From Escherichia phage EcWhh-1: DNA of 64,000 nucleotides. Positions 1 to 5,132 of the stretch are shown one piece after another (the stretch's first letter is position 1; each line of letters starts with the position of its first letter). Position numbers and translations under genes: made by a program. The notes beneath the pieces were generated by a model that did no database searches, was not told the origin of the DNA, and saw only the letters and a list, made by a program, of their open reading frames with translations. The stretch is from sequence record MH791409.1, one strand, 5' to 3'.

Positions 1-8
1 GCCCTTAA

Positions 9-170
9 TTAGTTGCTTGAATCGACTCTATAAACTTGACCACGGGTTTGGTAAACTTCGCCGTCCCATGTTTCAACTGTGATAGTAACGTACTCGGCAA
101 AAAGAGGACGTGTATCTGTCCAGAGATAACCATATTCACCTGTGACGAGCGTAACCCAGTACTTTCTCAT
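9..170 (-). CDS. hypothetical small protein, 53 aa
   Basis: Below ORF-track cutoff. ATG at 170 with AGGAG 5 nt upstream, TAA at 9-11. MRKYWVTLVTGEYGYLWTD... First gene downstream of gene 39. Confidence 0.45.
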   Translation of the reverse strand: MRKYWVTLVTGEYGYLWTDTRPLFAEYVTITVETWDGEVYQTRGQVYRVDSSN

Positions 171-184
171 AAAGTCTCCTTTTA

Positions 185-204
185 TACGGTACTCATGTAC
201 CGTA
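185..204 (-). other. perfect 8-bp hairpin just after gene 39 stop
   Basis: tacggtac-tcat-gtaccgta. No U-run follows on the minus strand, so this is an RNA stability or processing hairpin rather than a clear terminator. Confidence 0.4.
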
Positions 205-212
205 CGTATTTA

Positions 213-2033
213 TTATGACATCCAAGCCTTACGCAGCTGTGGGTCGTTTCCAAGGAGCATTTCGAACTGGTCTTTCCAATCTTCAGGTAATTGAACTACA
301 TCGAATTTAGGGTCTTGAATCATTCGACGGTATTCAGCCTTCTCAAGAGAACCGAGTCCTTTAATATAACGAATAGAATGCTTAGGTAGAGAGTCCTTAG
401 CTTTGGTATAACTAGGTACATCATAGAACCATTCCTGTTCTTTACCAACCTGAGCAATGATTACAGGAGTCTTACAGAAACGAATTCGTCCCTGTTCAAA
501 CAATTCCGGCCACTGACTAAAGAAAGCTAATAACGAAGGATAAATCGAACCAGTACCATCCACATCGGCGTCAGTCATGATAGCGATATTACGATAGTTG
601 GTTTTATCTGCAGGTTCACCAATAACCAGTCCAGTGATTGCACAGATATCAAACAATTCTTTGTTCTTCATGATATCGGCAGCAGTCATACCCCAGGTAT
701 TCATAACCTTTCCGCGTAACGGATAACCACCTTGGAGGTCTTTATTACGAACTTCAATGAAAGGACCCATTGCAGAATCACCTTCCGTAAGGAATAAAGT
801 CGTATCAGCATCTTTGCCATACATATTGGCTTTAATATGCTTATGGACCTTGGCTTTCAAAGCTTTCTTAGCAGCTTTTGTTTCGGCAGCCTTTTCAGCA
901 GCGAGCTTACGTGCTAATGCAGCCTCAATAATAGGCATCAACACAGCTTCATTAGCTAATATGGATTTAGCTAGTTTTTTAGAATCTAACTGAATATGCG
1001 AACGAATTTCACCATACGGCGATGTTAGACGTTCTTTAGTCTGGGAATCGAATCGCATATTTTTCATGCTTCGCACAAACATCAGCATCGTTAAACATTC
1101 TTTAATACGGGCTTTGGTTACTTCAATTTTAAACTTACGCTTAATTTGTGGGATAAGCTCGTCACAAATATCATCCATAACACATTCAACGTGGTGACCA
1201 CCGTTTTTAGTATGAATATTGTTCACGTACGTTAATTGTCGGAATCCATCAGGAGAGCGTCCTATAGATATCGAACAATTGTCCTGTTCTTGGATAATGC
1301 ACTCTTCGTCGAACTGTTTGGCGTATTTTTTAAACGACCCTTGGATTTTCTTACCATTAAATTTAAATTCAATATCAGGATAAATGACTGCTAAGGTTTG
1401 AAGTCGGTCAATGGTAATATCTTGATAAATTTTTTCAAATTGGTTCATTTCAAAGTGGCTAAAATCAGGTACAAATTCTACTTTGGTTCCATTAGTTTTA
1501 GATGGCTTTGATTTCCAAGAAACGTTTTCAGCGTTATTAGAGCAGTTAACAATAAGTTCAGATTTACCATCAGAAGTTGTGCCTGTAAACATCACAGAGA
1601 ATATATTTGTTAAACTGGAACCGACACCGTTTTGACCACCGGTAACACGTTCAGAGTCATCACCAAAGTTACCGCCTGCCTTGGTTTTTGTCCAAGCCGC
1701 GACGGGTCCTGGGATTTCTTCACCTTCAGGAGTAACCACTAGAGCTTGAGGAATACCACGGCCATTATCTTCTACAGTAACCTTATTAGAACTTAAATCA
1801 ATGCTTACTGAAATTTTGTTGGCAAACTTAAAATTAGTACGAATAGCTTCATCAACTGAGTTATCGATGATTTCATCAACTAATTTAAGAACACCCGCTA
1901 CATACCGTACTTTGGTAAACTCGCCGAAAAGAAATCGTTCATGGTCTTCAAATGATACACTTCCGATGTACATTCCAGGACGCTTAAGAACGTGTTCCTT
2001 ATCTGAAAGCATTTCAATTTTATTATCAATCAT
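213..2033 (-). CDS. 39: DNA topoisomerase II large subunit, uninterrupted gp39+gp60 type
   Basis: 606 aa. GHKL ATPase blocks (IIDNSVDEA, GQNGVGSS) and Toprim blocks (LTEGDSA, MTDADVDG). The C-terminal part, which T4 encodes as separate gp60, is in frame here. T4 synteny. Confidence 0.93.
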   Translation of the reverse strand: MIDNKIEMLSDKEHVLKRPGMYIGSVSFEDHERFLFGEFTKVRYVAGVLKLVDEIIDNSVDEAIRTNFKFANKISVSIDLSSNKVTVEDNGRGIPQALVVTPEGEEIPGPVAAWTKTKAGGNFGDDSERVTGGQNGVGSSLTNIFSVMFTGTTSDGKSELIVNCSNNAENVSWKSKPSKTNGTKVEFVPDFSHFEMNQFEKIYQDITIDRLQTLAVIYPDIEFKFNGKKIQGSFKKYAKQFDEECIIQEQDNCSISIGRSPDGFRQLTYVNNIHTKNGGHHVECVMDDICDELIPQIKRKFKIEVTKARIKECLTMLMFVRSMKNMRFDSQTKERLTSPYGEIRSHIQLDSKKLAKSILANEAVLMPIIEAALARKLAAEKAAETKAAKKALKAKVHKHIKANMYGKDADTTLFLTEGDSAMGPFIEVRNKDLQGGYPLRGKVMNTWGMTAADIMKNKELFDICAITGLVIGEPADKTNYRNIAIMTDADVDGTGSIYPSLLAFFSQWPELFEQGRIRFCKTPVIIAQVGKEQEWFYDVPSYTKAKDSLPKHSIRYIKGLGSLEKAEYRRMIQDPKFDVVQLPEDWKDQFEMLLGNDPQLRKAWMS

Positions 2034-2703
2034 TATGTTTTCTCTCGAATTGTTTTAAAATATTTTTATAGGACCCTTCAGGAAATCCACGTTTAATACT
2101 TTCTTTCATGAATTTAGCCAGTTTAGGTTTATCTAATTCTAACCATAAATCTTCTAAAGCGGATTCATATTCCCAAACAGGGCTTTTACGATTTTTAAGA
2201 CCGCATTTGATTAAGGCCTCGTCTGTATGTTTCTTACCAAAGAAAGGGTTGTTTTCTTTAGCCATTGCTTTGGAATGTTCAGGGCGTTTAATCCCATACA
2301 TAGGGTTAAGTTCACCTAATTTAAGGCCTGATTGGATTTTTATAGTTTCATGAGAATGATGTTTGTTAAAGAAAGGATTGTTTTCTTTACTAACGTCGGA
2401 GCCGAAAAATCCTTTAGGTGCTGCAGTTGCTCTATTAAAAAATAAATCAGATTTAGCCGCATTATTAAGGACTTGATACTTATACTCCGCTTTAGTAGCT
2501 TCTTCTCTTGTCTCGAATTCTTCAACTATCAAACTATCGAAAAGCTCAGGATGGGCAGCCAATTCAGACTTGTAAATCTCTTGGTACTTTTTAGATTTTA
2601 CGGAGCCGTGGTATCCGTTTAAATGTTTTTCTAGGCTAGTCGAACCTATATAAAATGGAGGTAATTTGTCTCCGGAATAAATCGTCAAGTAAACTATAAA
2701 CAT
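2026..2703 (-). CDS. GIY-YIG homing endonuclease (Seg-like, free-standing)
   Basis: 225 aa. N-terminal GIY-YIG (IVYLTIY...FYIGST). Repeated NNPFF(N/G)KKH and NPMYG NUMOD3-like repeats. Stop overlaps the gene 39 start by 8 nt. Confidence 0.8.
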   Translation of the reverse strand: MFIVYLTIYSGDKLPPFYIGSTSLEKHLNGYHGSVKSKKYQEIYKSELAAHPELFDSLIVEEFETREEATKAEYKYQVLNNAAKSDLFFNRATAAPKGFFGSDVSKENNPFFNKHHSHETIKIQSGLKLGELNPMYGIKRPEHSKAMAKENNPFFGKKHTDEALIKCGLKNRKSPVWEYESALEDLWLELDKPKLAKFMKESIKRGFPEGSYKNILKQFERKHND

Positions 2704-2726
2704 ACATCCTCCTTTAATTTATGAAG

Positions 2727-2756
2727 ATTATATCATGGCTTTATTGGAGCGTAAAC
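2727..2756 (-). promoter_or_regulatory. early-type promoter for the GIY-YIG gene
   Basis: Minus strand: GTTTAC (2756-2751), 18-nt spacer, TATAAT (2732-2727) preceded by TGa. AGGAGG SD before ATG 2703. Confidence 0.6.
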
Positions 2757-2777
2757 AAAAAAAGGGCCGAAGCCCTT
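2757..2777 (-). terminator. rho-independent terminator after lipoprotein gene
   Basis: Minus-strand RNA AAGGGC-UUCG-GCCCUU followed by a U7 run. Overlaps the stop codon at 2776-2778. Confidence 0.7.
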
Positions 2778-3036
2778 ATTCGAATCGAATAGTAGAGTTT
2801 TTAAACAGTAATCCTGAGCACACGGTACCCTTAACAGTTTTACCTGTAGGACCTACAGCAATGAATCCTGTACGTTGGAAGTCATCTTCAGAACATCCAA
2901 ACAAGCTATAACCTGTGATTTGGACCTGATCGAACCCGTTTGCATTCAAAACTTTAACAGCATTATCAGCATCAGTACAACCAACCAACGAAACTGCTAG
3001 TACAAGAGCCGCAATAGAACGATTAACATATTTCAT
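2776..3036 (-). CDS. predicted lipoprotein, 86 aa
   Basis: Signal peptide plus lipobox: MKYVNRSIAALVLAVSLVG|C. Confidence 0.6.
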   Translation of the reverse strand: MKYVNRSIAALVLAVSLVGCTDADNAVKVLNANGFDQVQITGYSLFGCSEDDFQRTGFIAVGPTGKTVKGTVCSGLLFKNSTIRFE

Positions 3037-3042
3037 AATTTC

Positions 3043-3219
3043 TCACTTAGTTAGCAGGTCATAGAACCCGCCGTTAACATGTTTAGGAGCTGAAACTAGC
3101 CGAACAGCCGGCCGATGGCAATCAGGGCAAACATCATTATCTCTTTCAGAGATTTTCTTGATTTTTTCGTATTCTTTTGCACAGTCTTCGGATTGGCATT
3201 TGTAATCATAAAGTGGCAT
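3043..3219 (-). CDS. FmdB-like CxxC...CxxC zinc-ribbon protein, 58 aa
   Basis: Below track cutoff. MPLYDYKCQSEDCAKEYEK...CPDCHRPAVRL. AAGGAA SD. ATG at 3219 follows the upstream stop (3221-3223). Confidence 0.55.
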   Translation of the reverse strand: MPLYDYKCQSEDCAKEYEKIKKISERDNDVCPDCHRPAVRLVSAPKHVNGGFYDLLTK

Positions 3220-3220
3220 A

Positions 3221-3658
3221 TTATTCCTTAAAGTGCGCTTTCAGCATCTGGTAAACAGTCCAGGCTTCAGAATTATTAGAGATAGTGATTTTAGTCAAAG
3301 GGAAATCACTCGGTTCAGATGGGGCTGCATCTTCAGACTGGTCTTCGTCTTCAGAAAAACCATCTTCGGCCCATTCGTCTTCACTGTCAACTACAACCAT
3401 TTCCGTAAAGAATTTACGCTCGCTTGGATATAAAACCATATCAATGTTATCACCATAAGCCAAGTCCACGTTCATCACATAACCTGCCGCTAATCTAACA
3501 GGGCAAAACCCTTCAGCATTGACAATAATATCGGCTAAGCTAGAATTATCAGGATTCCTAATATTATGGGCATTCAGCTTACGGAATTCAGCTTCTGCAG
3601 CGTCATCTTTAAAATAGTACCATTTACCTTTTTCAAATTCGAGTTCTTGATTAAGCAT
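3221..3658 (-). CDS. hypothetical acidic protein, 145 aa
   Basis: Start moved to ATG 3658 (GGAAGGAAAC SD; ATGCTTAA overlap with the upstream stop). Acidic tract SEDEWAEDGFSEDEDQSEDAAPSE. Confidence 0.55.
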   Translation of the reverse strand: MLNQELEFEKGKWYYFKDDAAEAEFRKLNAHNIRNPDNSSLADIIVNAEGFCPVRLAAGYVMNVDLAYGDNIDMVLYPSERKFFTEMVVVDSEDEWAEDGFSEDEDQSEDAAPSEPSDFPLTKITISNNSEAWTVYQMLKAHFKE

Positions 3659-3869
3659 TGTAAGTTTCCTTCCAGAAGTCGGTGCCTTCAGCAGTGATTT
3701 CACGGAACACTGCATAGATAGGGTTTTTATCACCTTGATTTTCGTATACATAAACCGACGATAAATGAGAAAACGTATCAGAATGTTCCTTTTGAACCAC
3801 GATTAAATCAGGGTTGAACAGAACATCTTCAAATTCTTCACGAGTCGAGTTCACAGTAACTTTAGCCAT
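3651..3869 (-). CDS. hypothetical protein, 72 aa
   Basis: Coding-strand ORF with GAGAGGAAAA SD and its own promoter-like element upstream. Confidence 0.5.
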   Translation of the reverse strand: MAKVTVNSTREEFEDVLFNPDLIVVQKEHSDTFSHLSSVYVYENQGDKNPIYAVFREITAEGTDFWKETYNA

Positions 3870-3900
3870 TTTATTTTCCTCTCATTTGTTGATAGGGTAA

Positions 3901-3930
3901 ATAGTATCACTACCCTACCGTATTGTATAC
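3901..3930 (-). promoter_or_regulatory. early-type promoter (weaker match)
   Basis: GTATAC (3930-3925), 18 nt, TACTAT (3906-3901), then the conserved ...CCCTATCAAC leader. Confidence 0.4.
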
Positions 3931-3943
3931 TATTTTTTAAACT

Positions 3944-4510
3944 TTATGCACGGTGAATGTTAGCATATTCAACAATAAAGCTTTCAGGAACAACCTTAAA
4001 GGTTCCAAGGAACACGATGTTATAGAGCTTAACGCCACCTTCAACCCACTGGTCTGTGATGTAACCAGACATGCTACTGGTTTCGTAAGTACCAAAAGGT
4101 TCGTCAACATATTTGAACGGTTTAGGAGTATTAAAACACACTCCTCGACCTAATTTCCATTTGAAATCAACGCCAACATGGGACTGGTCGATAGTTTCAA
4201 CGTCTTGAGCTACTACGCCACGGATATCATTGCTTTCACATACATACCCATCATGGGATTCAACTTCTTCAACTACAGGAGCGATGTACCCGGTAAATTC
4301 AGTCGATTCCAAGAATTTAGCACGCACATAACCGAATTGAGTTTCAGTCTGGCGATTTTTAGGAATGATACGAACTTTTACTTCATAATTTTCTTCACTG
4401 ACACCTTCTTTAAGTTGGATGCTAACAACTTCAACTAAACTGCCCGCAGCTTTTGAACGAGACTTTTTGGATACACGAACGATACTGCCGATATCGGAAA
4501 TAGTAATCAT
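3944..4510 (-). CDS. hypothetical protein, 188 aa (paralogue of 4584-5132)
   Basis: C-terminal block GYITDQWVEGGVKLYNIVFLGTFKVVPESF matches GWVTDQWIEDGVELLNVVHAGDFSIVPRSA of the neighbouring gene. Confidence 0.6.
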   Translation of the reverse strand: MITISDIGSIVRVSKKSRSKAAGSLVEVVSIQLKEGVSEENYEVKVRIIPKNRQTETQFGYVRAKFLESTEFTGYIAPVVEEVESHDGYVCESNDIRGVVAQDVETIDQSHVGVDFKWKLGRGVCFNTPKPFKYVDEPFGTYETSSMSGYITDQWVEGGVKLYNIVFLGTFKVVPESFIVEYANIHRA

Positions 4511-4552
4511 AATTTTTCTCTCTTGGTTAAAGGTTTATAATCCATGAGAGCC

Positions 4553-4581
4553 ATTATAACATGGCTCTCGATAAAGTAAAC
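4553..4581 (-). promoter_or_regulatory. early-type promoter
   Basis: GTTTAC (4581-4576), 17 nt, TATAAT (4558-4553) with an upstream TGt. Confidence 0.6.
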
Positions 4582-4583
4582 TA

Positions 4584-5132
4584 TTAATTCAATACGTTAA
4601 CCACTGCACTACGAGGTACTATGCTAAAATCACCAGCATGTACAACGTTCAGGAGTTCAACACCATCTTCAATCCACTGGTCTGTTACCCAACCACAGAT
4701 AGGATTATCAAAAGGACGACGGATAGCCACAGCAGCACACAACAGGTCGGTAGGGCCTTGTTCTTCAACTTCTTGGAACAGGATGAACTCATCTTCATAA
4801 ACCAGGTTTTTCTCTATTTTGTTATTATCTAACCGGCGACCGTGGATGACGTAAGATTTGTCAAACCACTCACTTTTGGCGAATTCTTCAACAATAAATT
4901 CGCCTTCGCCAAAAACATCAGTCAGAGTTTTATAACCAGAAATCAAGGCCTTAGTTTTAATTTCAGGTTCAACCAGTTTGTAGGTTTTGCCGATTTCGAT
5001 AGTCTGAGTAGTCATAGTGGTTTCCTTAATTTCCAGTGGTTTAACAGGGCATACATAAGTGCTTAAAACATCAAAATCAATCAGTTTAGCTGCCGGATTC
5101 GGGGTGTATTTAGGGTTGTAATTAAATTTCAT
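4584..5132 (-). CDS. hypothetical protein, 182 aa (paralogue of 3944-4510)
   Basis: ATGA overlap with the upstream stop at 5129-5132. An alternative start is ATG 5015 (AAGGAAAC SD, MTTQTIEIGK), which aligns with the paralogue's N-terminus MITISDIGS. Confidence 0.55.
   Translation of the reverse strand: MKFNYNPKYTPNPAAKLIDFDVLSTYVCPVKPLEIKETTMTTQTIEIGKTYKLVEPEIKTKALISGYKTLTDVFGEGEFIVEEFAKSEWFDKSYVIHGRRLDNNKIEKNLVYEDEFILFQEVEEQGPTDLLCAAVAIRRPFDNPICGWVTDQWIEDGVELLNVVHAGDFSIVPRSAVVNVLN

Follow-up and report, generated by a model that had tools for sequence, protein, structure and literature searches.

A gene lying directly upstream of gene 39, which encodes the large subunit of topoisomerase II, was analysed in a DNA stretch of 64,000 nucleotides (nt) from Escherichia phage EcWhh-1 (MH791409.1), called the window here. 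Positions 1..5000 of the window were 100% identical to Enterobacteria phage vB_EcoM_IME281 (MH051913 / NC_055740; Straboviridae, Tevenvirinae, Dhakavirus), and the sequence is named IME281 in all comparisons; the plus strand of the IME281 record is the minus strand of the window. The open reading frame (ORF) in question, termed seg below, occupies 2026..2703 on the minus strand, starts with ATG and codes for an intact protein of 225 amino acids (aa). By the available sequence and fold tests it belongs to the Seg class of free-standing GIY-YIG homing endonucleases known from T4. The comparison with related phages also shows that seg was copied in recently together with the first third or more of gene 39. 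All the features listed in the first-pass annotation were recovered at their positions on the minus strand, including the overlap of 8 nt (ATGATTGA, 2026..2033) between the stop of seg and the start of gene 39. Gene 39 itself (213..2033, minus strand) codes for 606 aa and is of the unsplit 39+60 form.

Distribution and site occupancy

The distribution of seg was analysed with tblastn. Full-length orthologues with 58-100% identity were found in 33 phage records, the denominator being the ~1,235 phage records that have a homologue of the gene 39 5' part. The carriers belong to Dhakavirus, Mosigvirus, Jiaodavirus-like Klebsiella phages, Tegunavirus (Yersinia) and Bragavirus (Proteus), together with Providencia and Enterobacter phages. 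The frequency within a genus was low, with 4 of at least 34 records in Dhakavirus (IME281, Bp7), 9 of 149 in Mosigvirus and 11 of ~140 in Jiaodavirus. In every inspected locus, from nine phage genomes and two metagenomic contigs, seg immediately precedes gene 39 and in most cases overlaps it by the same 8 nt; the genes further upstream differed. The relatives lacking seg have an intergenic gap of 64-69 nt between 39.1 and 39, and the ORF lies in neither an intron nor an intein. The junction upstream of gene 39 exhibits a presence/absence polymorphism at one fixed site. Universal presence of the gene with no polymorphism at its target had been named beforehand as the outcome that would speak against a homing endonuclease; seg was found to be sporadic and gene 39 strongly polymorphic according to seg status. 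In T4 the gap of 69 nt between 39.1 and 39 holds no insert, and a remnant of mobA lies on the opposite side of gene 39, between it and 60 (PMC2988022); the earlier statement that T4 has a different mobile endonuclease in this neighbourhood is correct.

Other genes were also observed at and around this site. Gaprivervirus vB_EcoM_RZ (NC_070780; L012:1778-2485) has a different ORF of 235 aa with a C-terminal Endonuclease_7 domain (Pfam 5e-18) in the slot directly upstream of gene 39. The RZ ORF starts 6 nt after a MotA-type promoter, and the RZ gene 39 is of the seg+ type at 10 of the 11 diagnostic positions described below. This locus suggests that one endonuclease family was replaced by another at one site. 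In Jiaodaviruses without seg (JD18, L017:2317-2685) the place upstream of gene 39 is taken by an ORF of 122 aa of no known function behind an early-type promoter. An ORF with HNH and NUMOD3 domains lies immediately downstream of gene 39 in AV114 (L010:4892-5689), where the flanks are locally diverged, and in Proteus phage PM2 (L005:5202-6017) an HNH ORF splits gene 39, as mobA does in T4, with seg being present upstream too. In the literature found, whose coverage was incomplete, no endonuclease was described in the position upstream of gene 39; the endonucleases mentioned at this gene were mobA inside 39/60 and GIY-YIG replacements of mobA in metagenomes.

Mosaic patch and alleles of gene 39

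The sequence of IME281 was compared with that of JS98, which lacks seg. The two phages are 97-100% identical for kilobases on either side of 888..2959 and 60-80% identical within it. This mosaic patch of 2.07 kb, lying in an otherwise JS98-identical background, comprises the last 256 nt of 39.1 (~80%), seg, which is missing from JS98, and gene 39 from nt 1 to ~1146 (888..2033, minus strand; ~68%). Downstream of nt ~1146 the identity returns abruptly to 99-100%, the remainder of gene 39 being 99% identical. Gene 39.1 is located at 2776..3036 on the minus strand and its 3' part (2776..2959) falls within the foreign patch. A second patch was noted in the window at 4300-4510, at the 5' end of motB, where IME281 is 75-81% identical to JS98 with indels and 92-95% identical to Bp7; this patch has no endonuclease gene next to it.

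The comparison was extended to two other genera. The seg-carrying Mosigvirus phages HX01 and AV114 are 97-100% identical to SF and AV117, which lack the gene. The exception is a patch that begins precisely where seg is inserted and runs to gene 39 nt ~1105-1146; it does not extend upstream of the insertion. The Jiaodavirus Mexia has seg in place of the 122-aa ORF of JD18; the flanks are 95-100% identical and gene 39 is diverged only to nt ~680. Across the genera, the alleles cluster by seg status in the 5' part of gene 39, with 74-78% identity among carriers, 80% among non-carriers and 67-71% in mixed pairs, and by genus in the 3' part. Such co-conversion of the flanks in three genera is an evolutionary footprint, as distinct from an observed cross, and no other line of evidence for mobility is as strong. 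In Dhakavirus and Mosigvirus the patch ends within LMPIIEAALARKLAAEKAAETKAAKKA, a stretch that all alleles have in common and that is probably the first place where crossovers can resolve. The border at nt ~1100-1146 was also considered as a cleavage site and was rejected, since it is conserved in all alleles and the Jiaodavirus patch ends at nt ~680.

The gene 39 of Klebsiella phage Biddle_MM4 (L007:3668-3730) is annotated from an internal methionine (MYIGS...). The frame stays open further upstream, as far as a GTG with an 8-nt overlap to the end of seg, and the true start probably lies 60 nt upstream of the annotated one.

The protein and its family

The fold and the domains of the 225-aa protein were analysed. 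The N-terminal region (aa 1-95; 2419..2703, minus strand) has the order beta1-beta2-alpha-alpha-beta3-alpha, a three-stranded sheet with helices, and superimposes on solved GIY-YIG domains. The domain contains Y5, Y18, K26, E73 and N90, of which Y5 and Y18 (the catalytic Tyr of GIY and of YIG), E73 (the metal-binding Glu) and N90 (the structural Asn) were invariant in 67 of 67 homologues; judged by topology, these four would correspond to Y6, Y17, E75 and N90 of I-TevI. The T4 Seg proteins align across the segment around position 26 with the same GYxGS pattern. This domain is followed by three NUMOD3-like repeats (aa 104-170; 2194..2394, minus strand), ENNPFFNKHHS, LNPMYGIKRPEHS and ENNPFFGKKHT, for which the Pfam scan gave NUMOD3 with an E value of 4.7e-11. 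The family profile reached the DNA-binding domain of I-TevI (1I3J) with an E value of 0.0055 via the NUMOD3 segment, and hhalign was in agreement. The last 55 residues (aa 171-225; 2029..2193, minus strand) form three helices with weak helix-turn-helix and homeodomain matches and are probably DNA-binding.

The family profile matched all seven T4 Seg proteins, with the common signature YIG-x9-GY(H/M)GS. When the family hidden Markov model was run against a database of eight sequences, the E values were 8e-9 for SegC, 4e-8 for SegA, 3e-6 for SegE and SegG, 9e-5 for SegF, ~1.5e-4 to 1.6e-4 for SegD and SegB, and 0.69 for I-TevII. BLASTP matched the C-terminal region of SegA (E 6e-6, 27% identity), and the identity to T4 Seg proteins was at most 29-37% over short stretches. 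The pairwise dN/dS of seven orthologues was 0.08-0.35; therefore the protein is maintained by selection.

The names given to this ORF in the databases were also checked. The label 'HNH endonuclease' is carried by the RefSeq record of IME281 (KNT84_gp274, NC_055740), by those of Bp7, HX01, PM2 and TG1, and by PHROG 10820. The Pfam scan of the 225-aa ORF gave no HNH family and the fold is that of GIY-YIG, and the name was rejected. The GenBank name of the IME281 ORF is 'hypothetical protein', and some GenBank records of orthologues are already labelled 'GIY-YIG homing endonuclease'. With 26.6 bits, the NCBIfam model TIGR01453 (group I intron endonuclease) stayed below its cut-off of 56.05. The protein, which contains only one Cys, has no zinc finger.

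A paralogue, unannotated, was observed in IME08 between a-gt.2 and gene 47 (L015:2455-3017), in the neighbourhood that holds mobB in T4. Its first ~117 residues are 62-69% identical to the catalytic domain of IME281, it is coded over at least the first 348 nt of this region and its C-terminal part is different. The same type is present in QL01, IME540 and NC-G, and it points to shuffling of nuclease and DNA-binding modules. IME281 has no second copy of seg, tblastn giving one place in the record.

Candidate target and immunity site

The alleles of gene 39 were compared position by position between eight sequences with seg (seven lineages) and five without it (JS98, SF, AV117, JD18 and T4). Only 11 nt positions in the whole gene divide all the seg+ from all the seg- alleles. 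None of the 11 lies beyond nt 693; they all fall in the shortest of the co-converted tracts, and six of them are within nt 27-77 (1957..2007, minus strand). The changes in this stretch are I15 to V or C, S19 to P and S26 to V in the conserved N-terminal motif of the ATPase, which turn KRSGMYIGSS into KRPGMYIGSV. The other fixed differences are at nt 345-349, 598-599 and 693. The cluster at nt 27-77 resembles a target-site immunity polymorphism and is proposed as a candidate recognition and immunity site.

Expression signals

The first-pass annotation had described a terminator-promoter cassette belonging to the endonuclease gene. The intrinsic terminator of gene 39.1 (2755..2777, minus strand) consists of the hairpin AAGGGCTTCGGCCCTT at 2777..2762 followed by T7, the hairpin with its U7 tail, GGGCUUCGGCCC, spanning 2777..2755; together with a neighbouring upstream hairpin it gave an RNA fold of -11.8 kcal/mol (z = -2.9). 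The terminator GGGCTTCGGCCC and its T-run are identical in JS98, FB, SF and AV117, all without seg, and it is therefore an element of the 39.1 backbone and not of the insert; its assignment to a mobile cassette was rejected. The promoter half of the description stands in part. A putative sigma-70 or T4-early-type promoter lies at 2727..2756 on the minus strand, with a -35 GTTTAC at 2756..2751, a spacer of 17 nt, a -10 TATAAT at 2732..2727 and an extended-10 TG at 2735-2734; it is specific to the insert, but only in IME281. The same element was not seen in JS98, Bp7, HX01 or the metagenomic contig L021 and is a lineage-specific acquisition. Promoter-like matches as a class were not enriched (16 against 16.8 in shuffles), and the three best minus-strand matches with TG are all in gaps directly upstream of ORFs. 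A Shine-Dalgarno AAGGAGG (2708..2714, minus strand) is located 4 nt ahead of the seg ATG.

The other lineages show a different arrangement. In the phages without seg the terminator is followed by a MotA-type middle promoter (TGCTTTA, 12 nt, TAnnAT) and the gene 39 Shine-Dalgarno. In HX01/AV114 and TG1 seg stands behind the resident MotA-box promoter, in Biddle behind a similar one with an imperfect match, in Bp7 behind a -10 TATAAT only, and in Mexia behind a resident early promoter shared with JD18. The seg ATG in all these phages comes 6-8 nt after the -10 with no Shine-Dalgarno, which suggests leaderless or weak translation. Contig L021 has a JS98-type middle promoter and then a leader with Shine-Dalgarno; a leader with this signal for seg was found only in IME281, PM2 and L021.

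The coding sequence of seg contains two further signals, missed in the first-pass annotation. A MotA-type middle-promoter-like site, TGCTTTA-N13-TAGAAT, is present ~135 nt before the stop in seven of eight orthologues, and in IME281 it reads CGCTTTA-N13-TAGAAT (2136..2161, minus strand; ~105-130 nt upstream of the gene 39 ATG). The motif is kept in Mexia although the encoded residue has changed, and the MotA-type class occurs eight times in the window against 1.5 expected. A GAGAG Shine-Dalgarno (2042..2046, minus strand), conserved in the orthologues, lies in the last codons of seg, 8 nt ahead of the gene 39 ATG. The two look like replacement signals for the displaced promoter and ribosome-binding site of gene 39. 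T4 seg and mob genes have been described as carrying such embedded host-gene signals (PMC2988022).

Proposed mechanism

The proposed steps apply the established Seg/I-TevI paradigm to the IME281 gene. Transcription of seg would begin at its own sigma-70-type promoter as soon as the cell is infected, and the strong Shine-Dalgarno would direct its translation. During co-infection with a relative lacking seg, the enzyme would cut the DNA of the relative at or near the 5' end of gene 39, the best guess for the cut site being the conserved stretch at nt 27-77 coding for KRSGMYIGSS. Recombination-dependent repair would then copy the IME281 allele over the break, bringing seg and its flanks along, and the gene 39 of IME281 would be spared by its diverged 5' allele (KRPGMYIGSV). 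The insertion would displace the promoter and ribosome-binding site of gene 39, for which reason the cassette would carry replacements, namely the embedded MotA-type promoter, the Shine-Dalgarno and the overlapping stop and start. We regard it as probable that the ORF encodes a T4 Seg-type free-standing homing endonuclease, made up of a GIY-YIG nuclease, minor-groove repeats of the NUMOD3 type and a small helical DNA-binding domain, with this scheme of mobility, co-transfer and immunity.

A wider proposal can be put forward tentatively. The gap between the gene 39 promoter and its ATG might be a contested landing pad, where an old trans-genus dimorphism of the ATPase-coding 5' part of the gene (KRSGMYIGSS vs KRPGMYIGSV) is kept by endonuclease drive and at least two unrelated nuclease families use the junction with the same 'immune' allele. 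Most lineages would then have a weak leaderless seg, and IME281, with its strong early promoter and Shine-Dalgarno, would be an escaped variant. If true, one homing endonuclease would have been serially replaced by another at the junction, with the Seg GIY-YIG enzyme here and the Endonuclease-VII-domain ORF in RZ.

Evaluation of the homing endonuclease assignment

Several observations weigh against reading seg as a mobile Seg-type endonuclease. The Pfam GIY-YIG model PF01541 gave 20.2 bits (E 7.6e-4), under its gathering score of 22.6, and because of this score the GIY-YIG assignment rests on fold comparison. No precomputed PF01541 match was found among the 120 homologues listed from a collection of 5.8 billion proteins; the family is a divergent GIY-YIG branch that sequence models alone do not place. 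Neither phmmer nor the family profile reached the catalytic domain of I-TevI among the PDB sequences, the matches being NUMOD3 or marginal UPF0213, and hhalign against an approximate I-TevI sequence likewise gave only these two and no match to the catalytic domain. Among the 67 homologues, position 26 is occupied by K in 46, by R in 15, by N in 4 and by A in 1, which leaves no invariant catalytic Arg. The protein passed the fold comparison, and the claim of a free-standing Seg-type GIY-YIG gene adjoining gene 39 is supported.

The allele data contain further points of this kind. A search of the phage records and of the protein collection revealed no donor for the IME281 patch; the nearest seg had 80% protein identity, and the nearest gene 39 5' region, in contig L021, 84-98%. 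Dhakavirus FB (MT682711; L011:3196-3263) has a gene 39 of the seg+ type, 98% identical to Bp7 over the first 1.1 kb, and no seg. Its promoter and leader are of the JS98 type and the switch occurs exactly at the ATG, with only ~6 nt shared. The seg+ type allele can hence exist independently of the endonuclease, and FB would be a resistant, endonuclease-free allele; its junction may have originated by precise loss of seg or may be an ancestral empty site. A strict model of two allele classes (A/B) tied to seg is weakened by FB and by Biddle_MM4, which carries seg with an N-terminus of the seg- type (VIKNEIQIL). As a general caveat, the patches could in principle come from ordinary recombination.

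Among the competing explanations, the one that survives best retains an active homing endonuclease and places the cut elsewhere, either at the insertion junction (gene 39 leader/ATG), within 39.1 or deeper in gene 39, by several hundred bp. This is possible, with a clearly smaller chance than that given to the scheme above. The leader of gene 39 is fully replaced in phages with seg, which would also confer immunity, the IME281 patch covers 256 nt of 39.1 as well, fixed differences occur beyond nt 77, and the distance between a Seg gene and the site cut by its enzyme varies among those known (PMC2988022). However, the leader is not conserved among the Dhakavirus, Mosigvirus and Jiaodavirus phages lacking seg, the Mosigvirus patch has no reach upstream of the insertion, and six of the 11 fixed differences fall within 51 nt.

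It is improbable that seg is a domesticated nuclease that lost homing and was kept for the damage it does to competing phages (marker or partial exclusion) or for regulation of transcription in the 39 region, in the manner of I-TevI, which represses its own promoter. Purifying selection across distant hosts and the unusual strength of the early promoter and Shine-Dalgarno in IME281 would fit such a role, and T4 homing endonuclease genes have been implicated in the exclusion of T2 (PMC2988022, PMC2993671). But exclusion and homing are the same activity, and this explanation does not exclude the homing scheme; moreover a frequency of ~3-8% within genera together with recent patches fits an element still moving rather than a fixed beneficial gene.

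Least probable of all is that the ORF is a passenger which rode along in ordinary recombinational mosaic without causing the exchange: T4-like genomes are mosaic in general, with a patch unrelated to seg at motB (~4300-4510), the Dhakavirus and Mosigvirus borders lie in a conserved stretch where any recombination would resolve and the FB allele occurs without seg, but seg is always at one site, the patch in three independent genera is anchored on its insertion point and always reaches into gene 39, and the protein has a nuclease fold with conserved catalytic residues under purifying selection.

Neighbouring genes

Read along the minus strand, the genes are dexA, motB.2, motB.1, motB, cef, goF-like, 39.2, 39.1, the seg-like ORF and gene 39. 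An ORF of 53 aa downstream of gene 39 (9-170, minus strand) matches PHROG 4369 (function not known, 1e-29). ORFs of similar size (50-66 aa) are present at this position in FB, TG1, Bp7, RZ, Mexia, JD18 and the contigs L021 and L022, and none is annotated there in JS98.

Comparison with known systems and significance

The closest resemblance is to SegA-SegG of T4, above all to SegF, next to gene 56, and SegG, next to gene 32. The likeness includes a length of ~220 aa, an N-terminal GIY-YIG domain, the YIG-x9-GY(H/M)GS signature and a C-terminal domain related to those of SegA and SegF. It extends to the free-standing position between conserved genes, the overlap with a neighbour, sporadic occurrence, co-conversion of flanks and embedded host-gene signals (PMC2988022). 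Unlike the T4 genes, which leave the locus upstream of 39 empty of seg, the IME281 gene lies upstream and not downstream of its presumed target; the similarity is at profile level only, and activity is predicted here. It also has its own strong early promoter and Shine-Dalgarno, whereas seven free-standing endonuclease genes of T4 (segC, segF, segG and four mob) have been described as promoter-less, with a recognisable ribosome-binding site in only about half of them (PMC2988022). In contrast to I-TevI, the gene is not intron-encoded, the protein lacks the zinc finger and has ~20% identity, and from topology Lys26 would occupy the region of the catalytic Arg27. MobA, at the 39/60 split of T4, is similarly a mobile endonuclease that exploits the gene for the topoisomerase II large subunit with part of that gene being co-transferred (bioRxiv 10.1101/2022.08.31.505936; PMC2988022). 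However, it is an HNH nickase inserted in the ORF at nt 1399-1419, which splits the gene and brings a bypass cassette, whereas seg of IME281 lies upstream and leaves gene 39 intact.

The general view of homing endonuclease action is left as before. The results correct the 'HNH endonuclease' annotation in RefSeq and PHROG 10820, and would add an eighth locus, upstream of the topoisomerase II large-subunit gene, to the Seg-type repertoire of T4-like phages. This locus offers an unusually clean comparative record: the transfers in three genera are recent and independent of one another, and the candidate nucleotides for target and immunity are few. IME281 and JS98 are both available and ~99% identical in this region; with the 11 fixed differences, the target and the co-conversion model can be put to a direct test. 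For the phages concerned, the locus also shows that the ATPase-coding part of an essential replication gene, a third to two-thirds of its length, was replaced in linkage with an endonuclease.

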